Made by a program: the position numbers and the translations under genes. 64,000 nt of DNA from Escherichia phage PMBT57, in the sequence record MG770228.1; one strand, 5' to 3'. Within the stretch, counting starts at the first letter, position 1. Each line of letters starts with the position of its first letter. The notes beneath the pieces were generated by a model. That model ran no database searches. It was not told the DNA's origin and worked only from the letters and a program-made list of their open reading frames with translations. Shown here piece by piece: positions 11,701-41,536 of this stretch.

Positions 11701-13307
11701 TCAGTTGCTTCAACAGCATCACGAATAGTAACTTCTGCTTCTGGTGCTTGAGCCATAGCTTCTTGTGCTGCCTGTGCAACATAGTCATCAGCAACAGGAG
11801 ATGCTTCTTCATTCTGCTTCATAACCCGTTCACCACGAGCTACCAAAGTGTTCTTAATAGGAGAAACAACCTTACCTGCTACACTACCAGCAGCTTTAAC
11901 ACCAGCCATTGTGGTACGCAATACAGGAGCAGTTGCAGCACCTGCTAAACGAGCAGCACCAGCCGGAGCCTGTACAACACCAGCAGAACCAAAGCCATAA
12001 AGAGCACCTAAACCAGCTTGTGTACCGACACCTTTAAGCAGGTCTTGGTTCTTATCAATGTTTTGTTGCTGTGCAATATTCTGAGCCAGTTGGCCTGTAG
12101 CACCCTGAACACCTTCTTCCACTGTTTCACGGGCAAGGTTCATACCTACAGCACCTAAAGAACCAGCACGGAAAGGAGCCATCTCAAAACGAGATACTAG
12201 AGGACCAGTTGCAGCAGCAATAGGTAATTGAATAGCAGCAGCAGTAAGACCAGTTTCAGATGCAGTTTGACGACGAGCCTGTTCAGGGGACATACCATCT
12301 TTAATATGTTGCTGATAAACAGGAGACTTCTCTAAGTCTTTAAGACTCATCTTCATAATTTCGTCAGCAGTTTGTTGGTATGCACCACCAGCTTCCATTG
12401 CACCAACACCAATCATACCTGGTGCAGCTCTGCCTACAGTAGAGGCAATACGAGCCAGTGACTGAGTACCAGTACCTGCATCAATAGCACCAGCCAATGC
12501 AGCACTACGAAGAGTATTTACTGGAACAACTGCTTTACCCAGTAAAGATGCACCCCTTAATACAGGACCAGCACCTAATAGAGAACCTACCCCTTCCGCT
12601 AACCCATCAGAAATAATAGAGTCAGTTTGAGCAGCGTTCTCAATTGAACCTACAAAATCACGTCCAAATTTAGATAAGGAAGCTACTATGTCATTAGTGC
12701 CTTCTTTCTTATCTGTTTGATACTGACGTTCACTCTCTACTTCACTCATTAAATTACGAGCAGCAAAGAGCTTACGTTTATCTTGTAATGCTTGGCTTTG
12801 GGTAGCATGGACAGCATCATTAAACTTACTCAATTGTTGGGCAATGACAGCACCTGCATCATCGTTGAGTAAGCCTGCCCCAAGAGCACCAATGCCCCCA
12901 AGGGTATTAACAAAACCAAGACCAACACCAGTAGCAATATCCCCCAGTTCTTCCCCAGGAGTTCTTGTAGTAACTGAATCATTAAATACCTGGTTCCCTG
13001 CATCAGCACGAGCGTTGATAAGTTGTAAGCCTTGCTCAACCCCATACTTATTCATGATTTGCATTGGAGTCAGATTCATGAAATCTGATTGCACTGTCCC
13101 TGGTTCAAATGCATTAGCCCCAACATTACCAGTACGGGCAGCTTGCATTTGATAAGCAGCATCAGGAGAAACAAGAGGAGTAGTGACACCTTGTTCAGCT
13201 TTCTTCTGGGCGGTTGCAGTAGAGACGTCAACTTGCTTTGCATTGGTTACGCTGTCTGCGAACCCAGCCAGTCTATCAAATACTGACATAGTAGGTTTCC
13301 TATACAA
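2787..13307 (-). CDS. virion-encapsidated RNA polymerase (N4 gp50-like vRNAP), 3506 aa
   Basis: Single 10.5 kb ORF; size and position at the start of the structural block are hallmarks of N4-like phages. Confidence 0.85.
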   Translation of the reverse strand: MYRKPTMSVFDRLAGFADSVTNAKQVDVSTATAQKKAEQGVTTPLVSPDAAYQMQAARTGNVGANAFEPGTVQSDFMNLTPMQIMNKYGVEQGLQLINARADAGNQVFNDSVTTRTPGEELGDIATGVGLGFVNTLGGIGALGAGLLNDDAGAVIAQQLSKFNDAVHATQSQALQDKRKLFAARNLMSEVESERQYQTDKKEGTNDIVASLSKFGRDFVGSIENAAQTDSIISDGLAEGVGSLLGAGPVLRGASLLGKAVVPVNTLRSAALAGAIDAGTGTQSLARIASTVGRAAPGMIGVGAMEAGGAYQQTADEIMKMSLKDLEKSPVYQQHIKDGMSPEQARRQTASETGLTAAAIQLPIAAATGPLVSRFEMAPFRAGSLGAVGMNLARETVEEGVQGATGQLAQNIAQQQNIDKNQDLLKGVGTQAGLGALYGFGSAGVVQAPAGAARLAGAATAPVLRTTMAGVKAAGSVAGKVVSPIKNTLVARGERVMKQNEEASPVADDYVAQAAQEAMAQAPEAEVTIRDAVEATDATPEQKVAAHQYVSDLMNATRFNPENYQEAPEHIRNAVAGSTDQVQVIQKLADLVNTLDESNPQALMEAASYMYDAVSEFEQFINRDPAALDSIPKDSPAIELLNRYTNLTANIQNTPKVIGALNVINRMINESAQNGSLDVTEESSPQEMQNVALAAEVAPEKLNPESVNVVLKHAADGRIKLNNRQIAALQNAAAILKGAREYDAEAARLGLRPQDIVSKQIKTDESRTQEGQYSALQHANRIRSAYNSGNFELASAYLNDFMQFAQHMQNKVGALNEHLVTGNADKNKSVHYQALTADREWVRSRTGLGVNPYDTKSVKFAQQVALEAKTVADIANALASAYPELKVSHIKVTPLDSRLNAPAAEVVKAFRQGNRDVASSQQKADSVNQVKETPVTKQEPVTSTVQTKTPVSEPVKTEPTTKESRPQAIKEPVSQSEKQDATLTNEDTIEQPTESVKETETSVKERTVTEELREGIDAVYPSLVGTADSKAEGIKNYFKLSFTLLEEQKSRTVGSEAPLKEVAQALSSRARYELFTEKEVANPAFNGEVIKRYKELMEHGEGIADILRSRLAKFLNTKDVGKRFAQGTEANRWVGGKLLNIVEQDGDTFKYNEQLLQTAVLAGLQWRLTATSNTAIKDAKDVAAITGIDQALLPEGLVEQFDTGMTLTEAVSSLAQKIESYWGLSRNPNAPLGYTKGIPTAMAAEILAAFVESTDVVENIVDMSEIDPDNKKTIGLYTITELDSFDPINSFPTAIEEAVLVNPTEKMFFGNDIPPVANTQLRNPAVRNTPEQKAALKAEQATEFYVHTPMVQFYETLGKDRILELMGAGTLNKELLNDNHAKSLEGKNRSVEDSYNQLFSVIEQVRAQSEDISTVPIHYAYNMTRVGRMQMLGKYNPQSAKLVREAILPTKATLDLSNQNNEDFSAFQLGLAQALDIKVHTMTREVMSDELTKLLEGNLKPAIDMMVEFNTTGSLPENAVDVLNTALGDRKSFVALMALMEYSRYLVAEDKSAFVTPLYVEADGVTNGPINAMMLMTGGLFTPDWIRNIAKGGLFIGSPNKTMNEHRSTADNNDLYQASTNALMESLGKLRSNYASNMPIQSQIDSLLSLMDLFLPDINLGENGALELKRGIAKNPLTITIYGSGARGIAGKLVSSVTDAIYERMSDVLKARAKDPNISAAMAMFGKQAASEAHAEELLARFLKDMETLTSTVPVKRKGVLELQSTGAGAKGKINPKTYTIKGEQLKALQENMLHFFVEPLRNGITQTVGESLVYSTEQLQKATQIQSVVLEDMFKQRVQEKLTEKAKDPTWKKGDFLTQKELNDIQASLNNLAPMIETGSQTFYIAGSENAEVANQVLATNLDDRMRVPMSIYAPAQAGVAGIPFMTIGTGDGMMMQTLSTMKGAPKNTLKIFDGMNIGLNDITDASRKANEAVYTSWQGNPIKNVYESYAKFMKNVDFSKLSPEALEAIGKSALEYDQRENATVDDIANAASLIERNLRNIALGVDIRHKVLDKVNLSIDQMAAVGAPYQNNGKIDLSNMTPEQQADELNKLFREELEARKQKVAKAKAEVKEETVSEKEPVNPDFGMVGCEHKASGVRILSATAIRNLAKISNLPSTQAATLAEIQKSLAAKDYKIIYGTPTQVAEYARQKNVTELTSQEMEEAQAGNIYGWTNFDDKTIYLVSPSMETLIHELVHASTFEEVYSFYQGNEVSPTSKQAIENLEGLMEQFRSLDISKDSPEMREAYADAIATIEGHLSNGFVDPAISKAAALNEFMAWGLANRALAAKQKRTSSLVQMVKDVYQAIKKLIWGRKQAPALGEDMFSNLLFNSAILMRSQPTTQAVAKDGTLFHSKAYGNNERLSQLNQTFDKLVTDYLRTDPVTEVERRGNVANALMSATRLVRDVQSRGFNMTAQEQSVFQMVTAALATEAAIDPHAMARAQELYTHVMKHLTVEHFMADPDSTNPADRYYAQQKYDTISGANLVEVDAKGRTSLLPTFLGLAMVNEELRSIIKEMPVPKADKKLGNDVDTLLTNAGTQVMESLNRRMAGDQKATNVQDSIDALSETIMAAALKRESFYDAVATPTGNFIDRANQYVTDSIERLSETVIEKADKVIANPSNVAAKGVAHLAKLTAAIASEKQGEIVAQGVMTAMNQGKVWQPFHDLVNDIVGRTKTNANVYDLIKLVKSQISQDRQQFREHLPTVIAGKFSRKLTDTEWSAMHTGLGKTDLAVLRETMSMAEIRDLLSSSKKVKDEISTLEKEIQNQAGRNWNLVQKKSKQLAQYMITGEVGNNLLRNAHAISRLLGERITNSPVADVAAIDKLTTLYSLELMNKSDRDLLSELAQSEVEGMEFSIAYMVGQRTEEMRKAKGDNRTLLNHFKGYIPVENQQGVNLIIADDKEFAKLNSQSFTRIGTYQGSTGFRTGSKGYYFSPVAARAPYSQGILQNVRNTAGGVDIGTGFTLGTMVAGRITDKPTVERITKALAKGERGREPLMPIYNSKGQVVAYEQSVDPNMLKHLNQDNHFAKMVGVWRGRQVEEAKAQRFNDILIEQLHAMYEKDIKDSSANKSQYVNLLGKIDDPVLADAINLMNIETRRKAEELFGKDELWVRRDMLNDALGYRAASIGDVWTGNSRWSPSTLDTVKKMFLGAFGNKAYHVVMNAENTIQNLVKDAKTVIVVKSVVVPAVNFLANIYQMIGRGVPVKDIAVNIPRKASEINQYIKSRLRQIDAEAELRAAEGNPNLVRKLKTEIQSITDSHRRMSIWPLIEAGEFSSIADAGISRDDLLVAEGKIYEYMEKLANKLPEKVRNAGRYALIAKDTALFQGIQKTVEYSDFIAKAIIYDDLVKRKKKSSSEALGQVTEEFVNYDRLPGRFRGYMESVGLMWFYNFKIRSIKVAMSMIRNNPVHSLIATVVPAPAMFGNVGLPIQDNMLTMLAEGRLDYSLGFGQGLRAPTLNPWFNLTH

Positions 13308-20111: not shown

Positions 20112-20129
20112 CTGATGTTAGCCCAACTA

Positions 20130-21335
20130 TTACAGCGGAGCTACAGTTTTAATAAGAGCCAGACGTTCTGGACGTTTAACCAGAATACCGTAGTACCATT
20201 TGATGCTGGAGAAGCCAGTTTCACCATATGGGTCATTACGGTCAGCAGTTTCTTTACCAGGCATCTTAGTCATAACGGTAAATTTAAGTGACTTACCGTC
20301 AGTCTGGAAGCCAATGGAGGTAAAGGAATCATCACCTACTACCAGCATTGGGTAAACGTCATAGTGCTCTTGGCCAGATACCATAGAGGTACGGTAACCA
20401 GGGTTAGCTCCAGTAGCCTGTGCACCAGCACCCGCCCAGTGCAGCATCTCTGGAACCTGAATGATACGGAACTTATCAATAGAACCGACTTCACCATTCA
20501 TGATAGTACCTGCATCAGCATAGTGCTGAGTTTCGATAAAGGCTTTATTACCGAACAGGTCTTTCATTGCTTTCAGTTCTGGAACCAGTTCAGAACCTAC
20601 ATACATGACACGAGTAGCACCGATGACTTTAGTATCAATCATACGGGAACCAGTGATGATGGTAGTCTGAGTAGGAGTACGGTTCTCCGTCAGAATCTGG
20701 TCAAGACGCATCAGGTTCTTATAAGAAACTACAGACGGGGTAGAACCTTCACCAGTGATGGTGGAATCAGAAGTAGCAGCACCAGCATACAGAACAGTAC
20801 CAGCAGCAGCCAGCAGGTCTTTTTGCAGTACAGCTTCAGTAATCTGAGTAGCACCATTCATCAGTTCACGGGACAGGTGTTCCATCAGGCCATCATCAGA
20901 ATCGAAGTCAATAGATTCCTGAGTGAACTCATAGAAGAAGCCAAACTTGTGAATAGAACCTTCACGAGCAATACGAGTAAAGCCAACACGGTTAACTCGA
21001 CCACCGTTTTCAGTCAGTAGAGGCAGTTTGGAGGTAATGTTACCGATGTCTTTGCTGGAACCATACAGGTTACCGTTAACGATGGTAGCACCACTTGCAT
21101 CAATACCCTGGTCATTGATGTTACGGTCATCCAGCAGAGGAACATATTCATATACCTTGATGGTCTTACCGTAATGCTTCGGCATGTTAGTTACAGAGGC
21201 CAGTGGCATGAAGTACTGCTCTTTACGGGCAGTGATGATTGCTTTCTTCAGCCAGAAGAAGGTTTGCATCTGGTCAGAGTTAGCACCATCAATACTAGAT
21301 TTCTGACCGTCAGTAGGAGCGTTATAGTTCAACAT
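20130..21335 (-). CDS. major capsid protein (N4 gp56-like), 401 aa
   Basis: Size and position between scaffold-like and downstream genes; terminator hairpin after it. Confidence 0.65.
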
Positions 21336-36515: not shown

Positions 36516-37158
36516 TTACTTTAGTAGGTGTACCAGCTTCAATAGCTGCTTTCTGAGCTTCAGCCAACTGGGTTAGTGTGTTCTTGAGTTCAGTCAATCC
36601 AGAGTTTTCTCTCAAATCCAGATTGATATTAGTAACAGCATCCTTCGGTTTCTGGAGGTGAGTAAGGATAGAGTTGGCAGCATCACACTGTACCTTCTCA
36701 CTGGTAGCATTCTTCATGAGCCATGCCTGATGGTTCAATGCTTCCTGAAACAAATCCTGATTAACAATCCATACTGGAATCAGTGATTGTTCCATAATGA
36801 GGTTTACTAACTTACCTCTATGGTAAGCAGATACATAAGCAGAGATGTCCTTCTCACTGGTTCCCCTTGCTACTAATTCAGCTTGTCTGTTGGGGAATGT
36901 TTTGAAGTAAGCATCTTTGTTGCTATACCCCATGTGTTTGTAAGTAACATATTGAACAGCATTAAGATAATCCTGGGTCTTAAACTTCCCATCCTTCATC
37001 ACCCCAGCATAAGTCACAAAGTTATTTCTAATTTGCTCTGCTGCTGTCTGGTCTTGGGTCACATTGTTAATCATGTTTACCAGTTGGTCAGTAACACTGC
37101 TTTTAAACTGGGGAGGCAATGCAGAAACAATGTCTTTCTTCGTCAGTAGTGTGCTCAT
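36466..37158 (-). CDS. putative terminase small subunit / packaging protein
   Basis: First gene of the late operon, overlaps the terminase large-subunit start by 50 nt. Confidence 0.4.
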   Translation of the reverse strand: MSTLLTKKDIVSALPPQFKSSVTDQLVNMINNVTQDQTAAEQIRNNFVTYAGVMKDGKFKTQDYLNAVQYVTYKHMGYSNKDAYFKTFPNRQAELVARGTSEKDISAYVSAYHRGKLVNLIMEQSLIPVWIVNQDLFQEALNHQAWLMKNATSEKVQCDAANSILTHLQKPKDAVTNINLDLRENSGLTELKNTLTQLAEAQKAAIEAGTPTKVIAGSTLVREDEDIIDV

Positions 37159-37285
37159 AGTCTTCCTACAAATTATCTAGAGTGAAGAGGATTCTTTTCT
37201 TGGGGTTAGCACCCCTTGCAGAAACCTATACATAGATTTAGACTTTAGACTTTCTTTAGTCTCCTTACAATAGTAAGACAGAGAC

Positions 37286-37627
37286 ATGGGGAGCCTATTG
37301 CCCAAAGGAACCAGTAACATGAGACTATTCTATAGTTTTGACGGTAATGACCAATGGAATGAGATAGACTTCAGTAAAATAGGTGGAGCTATCCCAGTTG
37401 GAGGGGCTATACCAGGTGACCATATCTTATGTCACGATGAGGAGTCTTTCCATTACATCTCCGGTATGATGTTAATCAATAACGTCACTGGGTTTACTGT
37501 CCATAAACCTGCACCAGTACGTGTCATTACCAAGCCTATTGAGGGTCTTGCATTCTTTACAAGAATACCTCAAAGTATCTCTATCAAACGACAGCGTGAC
37601 GCCATCGAGATGACCGTGGTTGCTTGA
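37286..37627 (+). CDS. hypothetical ORF in the terminus region
   Basis: ORF track only; overlapped by two antisense ORFs; a plus-strand terminator follows. Confidence 0.25.
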   Translation: MGSLLPKGTSNMRLFYSFDGNDQWNEIDFSKIGGAIPVGGAIPGDHILCHDEESFHYISGMMLINNVTGFTVHKPAPVRVITKPIEGLAFFTRIPQSISIKRQRDAIEMTVVA

Positions 37628-37790
37628 TAAGCCATTGCCCGCCCAGGAGTTGGTGGCGGGAAACAGGGAACTGTTTGAATAACCACTCCAGCTACATTCA
37701 CCCATCTCCAAGACACCTTTGTTATCTGCCATTGGGTGATGAGTAGTATCAGAGAGAACTGATTTAACAAACACACTCGGTATAGGAATT

Positions 37791-37818
37791 GGGAGCCATT
37801 TGGCTCCCTTTTTCTTTT
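37791..37818 (+). terminator. intrinsic terminator-like hairpin
   Basis: 7-bp stem gggagcc/ggctccc, loop attt, then TTTTTCTTTT. Confidence 0.55.
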
Positions 37819-37837
37819 ATGAACCAAGGAGTTCTAT

Positions 37838-38203
37838 ATGAACATTCGTCCTAATGAAGTTTATGGTATCAACCTAGAATACACTACAAACAAACCTGCT
37901 CTATTTCACTGCGGTTCCACCAATCTATTCCATGCTATGTGTGGTAATACCAAACCTCTTTACTTACCCGAATCGGATGATACCCATGCCCTACTAGGTA
38001 ACTGGTTCTTAGAAGGTAAAGACATTAGTACCATTCTTCTCGAACCAAGGAAGAAAGTAGCAATACCTACTAATGCATGGAATAACGAAGTCATTTACTT
38101 CCTAGCACCAGAAGGCTTTGAACCAGTGATAGAACAGAATCACTTTAATCATGCAGTTACTTTCTACTTCAGAGAGACTTCAAAGTTATCTGCTTATAAA
38201 TAA
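37838..38203 (+). CDS. early hypothetical protein, 121 aa
   Basis: ORF track; RBS aaggag 7 nt upstream of ATG. Confidence 0.6.
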   Translation: MNIRPNEVYGINLEYTTNKPALFHCGSTNLFHAMCGNTKPLYLPESDDTHALLGNWFLEGKDISTILLEPRKKVAIPTNAWNNEVIYFLAPEGFEPVIEQNHFNHAVTFYFRETSKLSAYK

Positions 38204-38212
38204 GGAAAGCTA

Positions 38213-38340
38213 TGTGGTATATAACAGTTAAAGGTTTATCCGAACCAGTGATGATAGATAGCCTGGCATTCGTAGAAGTAGGTCATCCTATTCTTATAGA
38301 AGGTAAGTTGTATGAAGTTGTTAGTATTTATAAGAGATAA
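38213..38340 (+). CDS. small early ORF, 42 aa
   Basis: ATG with RBS aaggaa immediately after previous stop; below ORF-track size cutoff. Confidence 0.3.
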
Positions 38341-38506
38341 ATAGGAAGTCTATTAGATAGATACCTTATAATTTTTTCTTAGTGAAAATAGTCATAGTTA
38401 CTTATGAGTTCAGTATTTGGTGGGGCTACACCCCTTACACCATAAGCACCCCCCCCCTGTCTTTACTAGTGTAGCCTTAGCCTACCCCACCTTGTACACG
38501 TTACAC

Positions 38507-38519
38507 GTTGCTTCGCAAC
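38507..38519 (+). promoter_or_regulatory. 5-bp stem / 3-nt loop hairpin, candidate vRNAP-type promoter
   Basis: gttgc-ttc-gcaac; template strand gives loop GAA with central purine; about 50 nt upstream of ATG 38571. Confidence 0.35.
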
Positions 38520-38570
38520 TTATGGACATGTTGTCCGTATCTTATCAATCAACTATTGGAGACTAATACT

Positions 38571-38897
38571 ATGACTACTCAGGCTAACGTTCGTATGACT
38601 GTAGGAACTCTGTTGGGTACTGTTAACGAAGCAGCAACTACTGTAGCTGATACATTCGGTACTGCTACTAAAGCAGTAGGTATGCTTAATCGTTATGTAA
38701 CTAAACAAGCAGATAAACAAATCATTCGTGACAAATTAGAAATGCATGAGTTTACCAATAAACTTATTGAAGAAACTGCAATGCAAGAAGCTATTCGTCA
38801 GAAACAAATCTTAGACTTCTGCAAAGATGAACAAAACAAAGAATTGTTCTCTAATGCCTATGACCGTCTTAGCAAAATCTTAGCAGACTCTAAATAA
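38571..38897 (+). CDS. early hypothetical protein, 108 aa
   Basis: ATG with RBS ggagac; ORF track frame opens at 38508. Confidence 0.55.
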   Translation: MTTQANVRMTVGTLLGTVNEAATTVADTFGTATKAVGMLNRYVTKQADKQIIRDKLEMHEFTNKLIEETAMQEAIRQKQILDFCKDEQNKELFSNAYDRLSKILADSK

Positions 38898-38909
38898 CAA
38901 CAAACAAAT

Positions 38910-38933
38910 GGAGGCTCCTCGGAGTCTCCTTTT
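38910..38933 (+). terminator. intrinsic terminator
   Basis: Stem ggaggct/agtctcc (one G-U) followed by TTTTAC. Confidence 0.5.
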
Positions 38934-38973
38934 ACATAGAACCGATAGTTCAATAACTATCTACTTTAAAGAT

Positions 38974-38990
38974 AAGAAGCTCCGCTTCTT
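38974..38990 (+). promoter_or_regulatory. 7-bp stem / 3-nt loop hairpin, N4 vRNAP early-promoter-like
   Basis: aagaagc-tcc-gcttctt; template strand reads AAGAAGC-GGA-GCTTCTT, matching the N4 P2 promoter hairpin as I recall it. Confidence 0.5.
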
Positions 38991-39100
38991 TTGGATGAAG
39001 TAATGCATCCAATCCTGTATGAAATCTTAACCTTTTGTCTGGGATTACTTACCGACAAAGTAGTCTCAACTAATCAAAATCAACTATCTGGAGAGTACAA

Positions 39101-39488
39101 AATGGCTATCACTACTTTTGCTAAAACCTTTGGTCAGACTTCTACTAAAACTGAATCCAACAATGGTTCTCGCCCGAAAGCTCAGTTCTGGATTAACGTT
39201 GGCTACGTAGCTAATGAAGGCACTGAAGATGAACGTTTCATCTCTCTGCCTACTGGTATTCCACTGGATACTCAGGAGCATCTGCCAACCAATTCCTCTA
39301 ACGAAGACTTCCGTGCAATGCGTTGTGCACAGAACGATTTGTTAGACCAACTGATGGAATTTGCTAAGACTCTGGAACCGGGTCAAGAAGGAGTTATCTC
39401 CTTGCAAGTTCAACTTCGTCGAGTTAAAGAAGAAGCTCCTGCTATCTCAGCAAGTGAGAATAAATATGCTCGTAAACTGACTTTCTAA
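39101..39488 (+). CDS. early hypothetical protein, 129 aa
   Basis: ATG with RBS ggagag; ORF track frame opens at 38991. Confidence 0.55.
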
Positions 39489-39496
39489 TCTCTATA

Positions 39497-39521
39497 GGAC
39501 TACCTTCGGGTAGTCCTTTTT
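39497..39521 (+). terminator. intrinsic terminator
   Basis: 8-bp stem ggactacc/ggtagtcc, ttcg tetraloop, TTTTT. Confidence 0.7.
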
Positions 39522-39588
39522 AATTTTAACTATCTAAATACTAAAGTAGAGATTTTGACCCTTTTCGACGAAGGGATACTAAAAAGTA

Positions 39589-39945
39589 ATGGATAGTTTG
39601 AGCAGATGTTTTAGAAGAAGGAGTATACAGATGCATCCTCTTATAAAACGATTCCTGATGGACTATCAGGAGTGGTTAGATAATGGAGCCAGTGAACCTC
39701 ATTACCTGTTTGATAGGGGTAGTGGACTGTGTGTTCAACTAGGCAAGTATCTTAGAAGACAGCCAATCAGTGAAGAAACAGTAGATGCTCTGTGTAAGAG
39801 CTTTACTCATTTACTTCCTGATAATGATACCAATCTACCATTCAATGTAGATGTTCTCGACTACATGATGGAATGTTCTGATGGAAGATGTCATCTGAAC
39901 CAAAGTCGAATTAATTGGATTAAGAGTCAGTTGGAGAGTAAGTAA
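39589..39945 (+). CDS. early hypothetical protein; likely true start at ATG 39631
   Basis: ORF track; RBS aaggag before the internal ATG. Confidence 0.55.
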   Translation: MDSLSRCFRRRSIQMHPLIKRFLMDYQEWLDNGASEPHYLFDRGSGLCVQLGKYLRRQPISEETVDALCKSFTHLLPDNDTNLPFNVDVLDYMMECSDGRCHLNQSRINWIKSQLESK

Positions 39946-39948
39946 ATT

Positions 39949-40386
39949 ATGTCATATGAAATTGTAAAACATTGGACTTCTAAGGCTGGGCTGAAAGCTT
40001 GGGTATTGCTGGTAAATGGTGGTAGTCATCATTGTGGTTACGTAGAAATACCTGAAGCATTACTGGATAAAAACTTCTATGACTATATCTGTGATGATGA
40101 AGAAACACTTCATATTGCAGTACATGGTGGAGTTACCTATCAAGGTGTTCCTCAGTGGGCTGATGGGATTAAAGTCATAGGTTATGACTGTGCTCATGCA
40201 GGGGATAAACTGAAATGTCCTAAACAATTCATTGGCTCTCTTAGGGAGAGACTCTATGAGGATTCTTATGGAGTATGGCGAGATGAAGAATACTGCATCA
40301 ATGAATGTGAAAGCATGGCAGACCAGTTAATTAACCTGATACCAAAATTAGGGTTTAACGATGAAATTCAGAACAGTAATGGTTAA
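39949..40386 (+). CDS. early hypothetical protein, 145 aa
   Basis: ORF track. Confidence 0.55.
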   Translation: MSYEIVKHWTSKAGLKAWVLLVNGGSHHCGYVEIPEALLDKNFYDYICDDEETLHIAVHGGVTYQGVPQWADGIKVIGYDCAHAGDKLKCPKQFIGSLRERLYEDSYGVWRDEEYCINECESMADQLINLIPKLGFNDEIQNSNG

Positions 40387-40558
40387 TGCTCTTGATACCA
40401 GGGGTAATGAAATCATTAGCTATAAAGTGCAAGGCTTTAAATGGTTCAAATGGAAAACATTAACTAGCTTTAAAGAATTTGAGAAAGATAAAGCTATTAA
40501 GTTAACCAAGAAGTTGAACCAACGTAAGAAGATTAAATTAGTTACTGTAATTAAATAA
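40361..40558 (+). CDS. small basic hypothetical protein, 65 aa
   Basis: ORF track; overlaps upstream gene by 26 nt. Confidence 0.4.
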   Translation: MKFRTVMVNALDTRGNEIISYKVQGFKWFKWKTLTSFKEFEKDKAIKLTKKLNQRKKIKLVTVIK

Positions 40559-40568
40559 GGATAAGGCA

Positions 40569-40727
40569 ATGCGTAAATCACTAATCATGGGAACCAAAGA
40601 AGACGTTGCTAAGATGAAAGCTAAACGTCAGATGAATAAAGCAGTAACGTTTGCAGAACGTTATAGTACGTCTGAACCAGTACGTCGTATTGTTACTTTC
40701 AACCATCCAGCTATTAAGGGTATGTAA
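40569..40727 (+). CDS. small ORF, 52 aa
   Basis: ATG 10 nt after previous stop; stop overlaps next start; below ORF-track cutoff. Confidence 0.35.
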   Translation: MRKSLIMGTKEDVAKMKAKRQMNKAVTFAERYSTSEPVRRIVTFNHPAIKGM

Positions 40728-40936
40728 TGCAAACTAAAGATAAGAAAGACTTAGAACGTCTTCTCCGTGTATATGGTGATTATGCATTGTTAGCAGAGAT
40801 AACTAATATTATCGAAGAAGACTGTCGTAACGGTTATGCCAATAACCCACAAGCAATAATTCATCGTGATGCAGTAGTGCTTAGAGAAGCAGTCAGTAAG
40901 ATGCAAGTATTACATCCATTAAGACAACGAGCATAA
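40727..40936 (+). CDS. hypothetical protein, 69 aa
   Basis: ORF track. Confidence 0.5.
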   Translation: MQTKDKKDLERLLRVYGDYALLAEITNIIEEDCRNGYANNPQAIIHRDAVVLREAVSKMQVLHPLRQRA

Positions 40937-41009
40937 ATAGGAGGGGGCTACTAAGCCCTCTTCTTATTTTTATCGTGGTTATTAAGCAACTATCTTAGAG
41001 GAAGGAATA

Positions 41010-41225
41010 ATGGAACAGTTAAACTACGGTTATAAGATTAAACGCAATCAAGTAAGAGGTTCTTGGTTATTTCTCGTTTATGGTAAACCAATCTATGAAT
41101 TACATCGTGGAGAGAAATCCAAGACCTATTACGTAACTCATATTGCTACAGGAAAAACTCCTGCATGTGCAGGATTGCTTCGTGATGCAATTATGAAAGC
41201 ATGTATGTTAGAAGGACTTCTATGA
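41010..41225 (+). CDS. hypothetical protein, 71 aa
   Basis: ORF track; RBS ggaagg. Confidence 0.5.
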   Translation: MEQLNYGYKIKRNQVRGSWLFLVYGKPIYELHRGEKSKTYYVTHIATGKTPACAGLLRDAIMKACMLEGLL

Positions 41226-41536
41226 ACCAAATCATTGCTATCCCGCAGCATAAAGCTCGTATTGCTGACAGGAATATTCGTATTCATTATCCAATGCCTT
41301 TGAGTAATCCATTTCAGAAAAATGAGAGAACCACGGATGAAGATATAGCAGCAGCTTATGAGGCATATCTTCGTAACCGTTTGGTAAGTGGTGACAAGCT
41401 CATTACGGCTGAAATGGAACGAATTGCTAAATTCGTTATGGATACTACTGACAAACCAGTTGGCCTCATCGGTAATGAACTGGAAGTGAATGTAATCCGT
41501 AAGATTATTATGGAGGCTCTTAATGGGAATCAGTGA
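41222..41536 (+). CDS. hypothetical protein with partial DUF4326-like N-terminal motif
   Basis: LSNPF and AAYEAYLRNRL motifs resemble the N-terminal half of DUF4326; lacks the Cys/His cluster. Confidence 0.45.
   Translation: MNQIIAIPQHKARIADRNIRIHYPMPLSNPFQKNERTTDEDIAAAYEAYLRNRLVSGDKLITAEMERIAKFVMDTTDKPVGLIGNELEVNVIRKIIMEALNGNQ

Follow-up and report, generated by a model that had tools for sequence, protein, structure and literature searches.

The window, by which we mean the entire 64,000-nt stretch of Escherichia phage PMBT57 DNA that was analyzed (sequence record MG770228.1), carries a small inverted repeat at positions 38507 to 38519 of the plus strand. The repeat is intergenic, lying downstream of the rightward genes gp70 to gp72 and upstream of an open reading frame at 38571 to 38897, also on the plus strand. 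This frame had been proposed as an early gene, and its product is identical at 108 of 108 residues to gp1 of phage N4, an early protein that serves as cofactor of N4 RNA polymerase II (PMC4496689). Its ATG is preceded by a Shine-Dalgarno sequence, GGAG at 38558 to 38561, which was read from the sequence and is invariant in orthologues. A 1.6-kb query around the site matches the Enquatrovirus phages Jura, AlfredRasser, AL25, and N4 at 98.6 to 99.2% identity, with Jura as the best match. By sequence match, position 38418 corresponds to nt 1 of the GenBank genome of N4, its left end, and the end of the N4 record, ...gagttcagtatt, is contiguous in the window with tggtgggg.... Because the end of the N4 record abuts the N4 start at this point, the window is a circular permutation that reads through a collapsed terminal-repeat junction. 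Judged from these matches, the permuted genome is that of an N4-type coliphage (Enquatrovirus).

The repeat consists of the arms gttgc (38507 to 38511) and gcaac (38515 to 38519), which enclose the loop ttc (38512 to 38514). Since the next pair outward, c38506 and t38520, is unpaired, the stem is exactly 5 bp long. The first-pass annotation had described a perfect 5-bp stem with a 3-nt loop, a template-strand loop GAA with a central purine, and a position about 50 nt upstream of the ATG at 38571. All of this agrees with the sequence, in which the reverse complement of ttc is GAA and 51 nt separate the last stem base from the ATG. While the plus, or non-template, strand reads GTTGC-TTC-GCAAC, the functional hairpin is that of the template (minus) strand, 5'-GTTGC-GAA-GCAAC-3', which occupies promoter positions -17 to -5. 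When the two strands were folded in isolation, both were computed to form the expected hairpin, at -3.7 kcal/mol for the template strand and -3.3 kcal/mol for the other. The template-strand value corresponds to a z score of -2.6, and as a DNA folding energy it is modest. Nearest-neighbor parameters miss the extra stability of GNA mini-hairpins. The template-strand stem is topped by exactly GCGAAGC, the sequence of the extraordinarily stable d(GCGAAGC) mini-hairpin, with the difference that here the motif forms part of a longer stem, of 5 bp, and acts as a protein recognition element. In a review of such extraordinarily stable DNA mini-hairpins, the N4 promoter is given as a natural example of the GCGNAGC motif.

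Comparison with N4 identifies the site. Window positions 38418 to 38600 are 100% identical to nt 1 to 183 of N4, and therefore the hairpin corresponds to nt 90 to 102 of that genome. An 81-nt native "P1 promoter" template was used in a 2026 paper for run-off transcription by the N4 virion RNA polymerase, or vRNAP (PMC13434306), and the published 81-mer aligns with the minus strand of window positions 38475 to 38555 with 0 mismatches. By our own arithmetic, trimming the 81-nt oligonucleotide by the 30 nt of native sequence said to flank the promoter at either end leaves a 21-nt promoter core, 5'-CCATAAGTTGCGAAGCAACGT-3', which spans template positions -19 to +2 (38505 to 38525, minus strand). 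The same study obtained cryo-EM structures of vRNAP with P1, using an oligonucleotide that contains the hairpin GTTGCGAAGCAAC, and described the hairpin as being bound in the way that earlier crystal structures had suggested (PMC13434306). Since both the 81-mer template and the hairpin of the cryo-EM structures match the window exactly, the hairpin is the known N4 P1. Furthermore, the start sites of N4 P1, whose sequence is identical to that in the window, have been determined in vivo as well as in vitro (reviewed in PMC4496689, which cites Haynes and Rothman-Denes 1985 and Glucksmann et al. 1992 for work on this early promoter). The hairpin at 38507 to 38519 is thus almost certainly the P1 early promoter of an N4-type coliphage, with a mechanism that has been established for N4 on an identical sequence.

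In other words, the site is already known, having been characterized genetically, biochemically, and structurally in N4, and it adds no new biology to what has been described from the work of 1985 and 1992 onward. Identity between the window and N4 covers the hairpin together with at least 89 nt on its upstream side and 81 nt on its downstream side, and the site shares with N4 P1 its location (in front of gp1, at a distance of 90 nt from the left genome end), its determinants, and its polymerase. As a promoter it does not differ from N4 P1, and the source phage is a close relative of N4, not necessarily the type strain. The value of the call is that of a calibration point, in which a rare type of promoter, made of a DNA hairpin on a single template strand and used by an injected polymerase, was recognized from raw sequence. 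The original proposal of a vRNAP hairpin promoter upstream of an early gene has accordingly turned out to describe N4 P1, with all of its determinants in place, gp1 downstream, and conservation in relatives.

The rules for vRNAP promoters have been summarized in a 2015 review (PMC4496689). Conservation extends from -17 to +1, and a GC-rich heptamer centered at -11 is flanked by inverted repeats. Specific recognition depends on -11A/G, -10G, -8G, and +1C, and a G:C loop-closing pair is required (PMC4496689). The start point lies 8 nt downstream of -8, and the four bases in between measure this distance as a ruler (PMC4496689). When these rules were applied to the sequence, every published determinant was found on the template strand of P1. 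Specifically, the template bases are A at -12 (38512, plus-strand t), A at -11 (38513, plus-strand t), G at -10 (38514, plus-strand c), C at -9 (38515, plus-strand g), and G at -8 (38516, plus-strand c). The heptamer is GCGAAGC, closed by a C:G pair that involves -9C, and -8G lies within the stem. The last stem base is at -5 (38519), and it is followed by an unpaired spacer from -4 to -1 (38520 to 38523, plus-strand ttat) and by C at +1 (38524, plus-strand g). The stem of 5 bp falls within the range of 5 to 7 bp and carries the 3-nt template loop of this class, which reads G(-10), R(-11), A(-12) with the purine in the center, and the hairpin is found at the far left of the genome and shares its strand with the early genes. 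From the ruler rule together with the +1C requirement, we infer that the P1 transcript would begin with a G at 38524, opposite the template C and 47 nt upstream of the gp1 ATG, a position that is assigned to this isolate by rule.

Short hairpins are common, and it is reasonable to ask whether this one could be a chance inverted repeat in intergenic DNA, devoid of function. The window contains 118 perfect hairpins with a 5-bp stem and a 3-nt loop, about 1.6-fold more than the 74 ± 8 found in dinucleotide-preserving shuffles, and a bare hairpin of this kind at P1 is not statistically remarkable. The 118 hairpins are spread evenly, with no recurrent loop or stem motif. Likewise, the core heptamer GCTYCGC/GCGRAGC taken alone occurs at chance level, with 4 occurrences observed and 3.6 ± 1.9 expected. 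Yet the picture is different for the full determinant motif, which we defined as the GC-T(Y)C-GC core plus three more complementary pairs plus a G four nt after the stem. This motif occurs at three sites (38507, 38976, and 42965), all of them on the plus strand in the early region. Across 300 shuffles its mean was 0.027, and none of the shuffles had three or more, which places the observed number about 100-fold over expectation.

Related phages, in which the first-pass annotation had suggested that conservation be checked, provide a second line of evidence. We read the orthologous position in KP8, K60PH164C1, G7C, pSb-1, PhAPEC7, ECBP1, IME11, K57alpha1.2, Moo19, and the Achromobacter phage Axy10, which belong to four other genera (Kaypoctavirus, Gamaleyavirus, Moovirus, and Pourcelvirus). 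The hairpin is kept in 10 of the 10 relatives with compensatory changes in the stem. The core GC-TCC-GC, a 4-nt spacer (YTAT or GTAT), and the GG start are also present in all ten, and the outer stem triplets vary among GTT/AAC, CAT/ATG, and GAC/GTC. Covariation was then quantified in an alignment of 13 promoters from five genera, made up of eight P1 orthologues and five other promoters of the same type. Every stem cell in this alignment is paired (100%), and double compensatory changes are seen in three of the five pairs (14 cells), with the outer pairs reading GC/CG/AU, AU/UA/CG, and UA/CG/AU. Neither the observed pairing nor the covariation score was reached in any of 500 shuffles, and sliding the 3' arm by 1 to 3 columns lowered pairing to 14 to 43%. 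This pattern matches the literature, according to which contact bases are conserved and variable bases need only pair.

Taken together, these observations leave a negligible probability that the hairpin is a functionless chance repeat. Its sequence is that of the experimentally used N4 P1 with all determinants in register, its stem has changed in a compensatory manner around an invariant core, the full motif is confined to the early region, and the published run-off transcription and structures on the exact sequence effectively refute such a reading. The P1 orthologues in these other Schitoviridae resemble the P1 of the window in lying near a genome end upstream of a gp1 homologue and in sharing its core heptamer and GG-start spacing. 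In phage LUZ7, mapping has placed early transcription starts, with G as the first base, downstream of hairpins of this kind. The compensatory stems, the invariant GC-TYC-GC, and the fixed spacing to the GG start make a compact illustration of the published rules. The GenBank record of KP8 labels the orthologue at 89 to 110 "early promoter," and most Schitoviridae records, including that of N4 itself, have no early promoter annotation. The GC-TYC-GC pattern could serve to annotate early promoters in other members of the family.

As gp72 ends at 38340, upstream of the hairpin, the repeat could also be read as an intrinsic terminator of the rightward genes gp70 to gp72 or as an element that stabilizes their RNA. 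The sequence on its 3' side is ttatgg, with no T-run, and the stem is short and weak. Our terminator scan makes no call here, in line with the initial view that this is not a terminator, yet it does call terminator-like hairpins at 37791, 38910, 39496, and 40939. Furthermore, 167 nt separate the hairpin from the gp72 stop, and the physical genome end at 38417/38418 falls between the two. A role in ending or stabilizing the gp70 to gp72 transcript is thus hardly credible, and the promoter remains the reading that we adopt. A conventional sigma-70 promoter was considered as a source of gp1 transcription and was rejected, as a scan for -35 and -10 hexamers with a spacing of 16 to 18 nt returned no plus-strand site between 37272 and 41741. 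Sigma-70-like sites are depleted in 37200 to 43600 (9 vs 20.9 expected). Finally, an Rfam scan of 37000 to 44000 at a permissive E-value gave no match at the hairpin and one sub-threshold match to the L20 leader, at 39421 to 39531.

The two other sites with the full motif correspond to P2 and P3. The comparison hairpin that had been pointed out at 38974 was found as aagaagc-tcc-gcttctt at 38974 to 38990 (plus strand); identified by its motif as P2, it has a 7-bp stem and contains the hairpin GAAGCGGAGCTTC of the published P2 oligonucleotide. The third, AAGCTGC-TCC-GCAGCTT at 42963 to 42979 (plus strand), also with a 7-bp stem, is identified as P3 by motif and position. Their predicted +1 sites, at 38993 and 42982, respectively, fit the same register as that of P1. 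By their position, the 269-aa and 416-aa open reading frames downstream of P3 are taken to encode the RNA polymerase II subunits gp15 and gp16. P2 and P3 share with P1 the GC-TYC-GC core, the 3-nt loop, the C:G closing pair, -8G, the GG start, and a 4-nt spacer that is T-rich on the non-template strand. They differ from P1 in three respects, as P1 has a stem of 5 bp vs the 7 bp possible in P2 and P3, a template loop GAA (-11A) vs GGA (-11G), and a spacer TTAT vs TTTT. In the window and the 13 related records read, of roughly 87, the TTC loop (-11A) of P1 occurs only in Enquatrovirus (the window, N4, Jura, and SPSP), whereas TCC (-11G) is found in 10 of 10 relatives examined as well as in P2 and P3. 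Promoters with a GGA loop are bound with high affinity by mini-vRNAP, with a Kd of 2 nM according to a review.

A relaxed scan of both strands for a fourth promoter, which allowed T-Y-C loops and stems as short as 4 bp, yielded no candidate with both a C:G closing pair and -8G. One hairpin at 47596 to 47612 on the plus strand (AAGAAAG-TTC-CTTTCTT, about N4 nt 9180) has a 7-bp stem, a 3-nt loop, and a GAA template loop, and it was rejected for its wrong closing pair and lack of -8G. We also judged the fourth copy of the heptamer, GCGGAGC at 20135 to 20141 (within 20123 to 20143), to be a chance occurrence. It points leftward with +1C in register about 60 nt upstream of gp55. Its stem has only three Watson-Crick pairs, and the heptamer coincides with the Ala-Pro-Leu codons that end the major capsid gene, whose stop lies within the wider segment 20123 to 20143. 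Nor is it conserved, the corresponding sequence being GCTCCTC in ECBP1 and GCACCAC in VLCpiP4a. The Discussion of one paper (PMC13492108) speaks of "four early promoters (P1-P4)," whereas its Introduction gives three, as do all other sources. Our scans support three early promoters, and the census may not be fully settled.

The cognate polymerase is encoded in the same window. A 3506-aa open reading frame at 2787 to 13307 on the minus strand was assigned to vRNAP by alignment to the solved N4 vRNAP structures; its central polymerase domain aligns end to end with the N4 vRNAP of the PDB, with scattered substitutions only. The residues of the -11 recognition element, K114, R119, and W129 in mini-vRNAP numbering, are all present. 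Four plus-strand tRNA genes (Asn-GTT, Ser-TGA, Thr-TGT, and Pro-TGG) lie at 716 to 1394, just past the 3' end of the vRNAP gene at 2787.

If the phage behaves as N4 does, P1 would work as follows. According to the literature on N4, the left genome end would enter the cell first, and host DNA gyrase would supercoil the topologically constrained DNA so that the inverted repeat extrudes as a cruciform. Escherichia coli SSB would melt the non-template hairpin, and the template hairpin 5'-GTTGC-GAA-GCAAC-3', with its very stable GCGAAGC, would survive. The injected vRNAP would then bind the template hairpin, with the purine at -11 stacking on W129 and -10G contacting K114, and its specificity loop would read -8G and -9C through the major groove. 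With the four unpaired bases after the stem serving as the ruler, RNA synthesis would start opposite the template C at 38524. The resulting transcript, with a 47-nt leader, would carry gp1, which serves the second RNA polymerase of the phage as a cofactor. The P1 transcription unit would probably end at 38910 to 38933 on the plus strand, where the terminator scan places an intrinsic terminator-like hairpin plus TTTT after gp1. The biochemistry in this account comes from the literature, the start site and terminator are the ones that we infer, and sequence identity, determinants, covariation, and cognate polymerase come from the present analysis.

The location of P1 raises the question of whether, besides being a promoter, it serves an end-related function, for example in replication priming by vRNAP or as a signal for packaging or end recognition. 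P1 falls within the terminal repeat, at 90 nt from the left terminus, and since the terminal repeats of N4 measure 390 to 440 bp in the literature, P1 (nt 90 to 102) is present at both ends of the virion DNA. The orthologue in Axy10 also lies inside an annotated terminal repeat, of 404 bp, and DNA replication is among the processes that a review names as involving the N4 transcription machineries. Nevertheless, we found no direct evidence for such a role, and because P2 and P3 are built in the same way at a distance from the genome end, transcription alone explains the architecture of P1. An additional end-related function is, in our estimation, improbable, and we continue to treat P1 as an early promoter.

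The DNA to the left of P1 has features of its own. The left-terminal 90 nt (38418 to 38506) are unusually C-rich and structured, and much of this segment is conserved in KP8. It includes GGTGGGGCTACACCCC, an inverted repeat at the very genome end, a run of nine C at 38449 to 38457, and TACCCCACC at 38483 to 38491. A tandem ACACGTT-ACACGTT directly adjoins the P1 stem. This C-rich structure is possibly related to end formation or packaging.

On the other side of P1, the transcript would open with a structure. A perfect inverted repeat, GGACA-TGT-TGTCC at 38524 to 38536 (plus strand), begins exactly at the position assigned to +1, and it is the only stem kept in the centroid of the RNA fold. The P2 transcript is likewise predicted to form a 5'-terminal stem-loop (GGATG...CATCC, 38993 to 39010), the +1 region of Axy10 (GGGT...ATCC) could form a similar stem, and the start of P3 has no clear equivalent. 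Among the P1 orthologues of the Enquatrovirinae (four genera), GGACATGTYGTCC is nearly invariant even though it is noncoding, and a T-to-C variant of the repeat cuts the stem to 4 bp. If selected, the repeat may act as an RNA stem-loop at the 5' end, either shielding the early mRNA or helping to peel the nascent RNA off the single-stranded template. Conceivably, promoter function at P1 extends past the hairpin through a selected +1 repeat, and, separately, the -11A loop may be a tuned, lower-affinity variant for the first-injected promoter; both are ideas that we put forward tentatively and regard as rather doubtful.

Farther downstream, the start of gp2 as annotated in N4 (nt 586, ATG at 39003 in the window) is only 10 nt past the predicted P2 +1 and has no Shine-Dalgarno sequence. 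An in-frame ATG at 39102 has GGAGAG upstream, at 39090 to 39095, and gp2 is marked as a pseudogene in the Jura record. The annotated gp2 start may be wrong.
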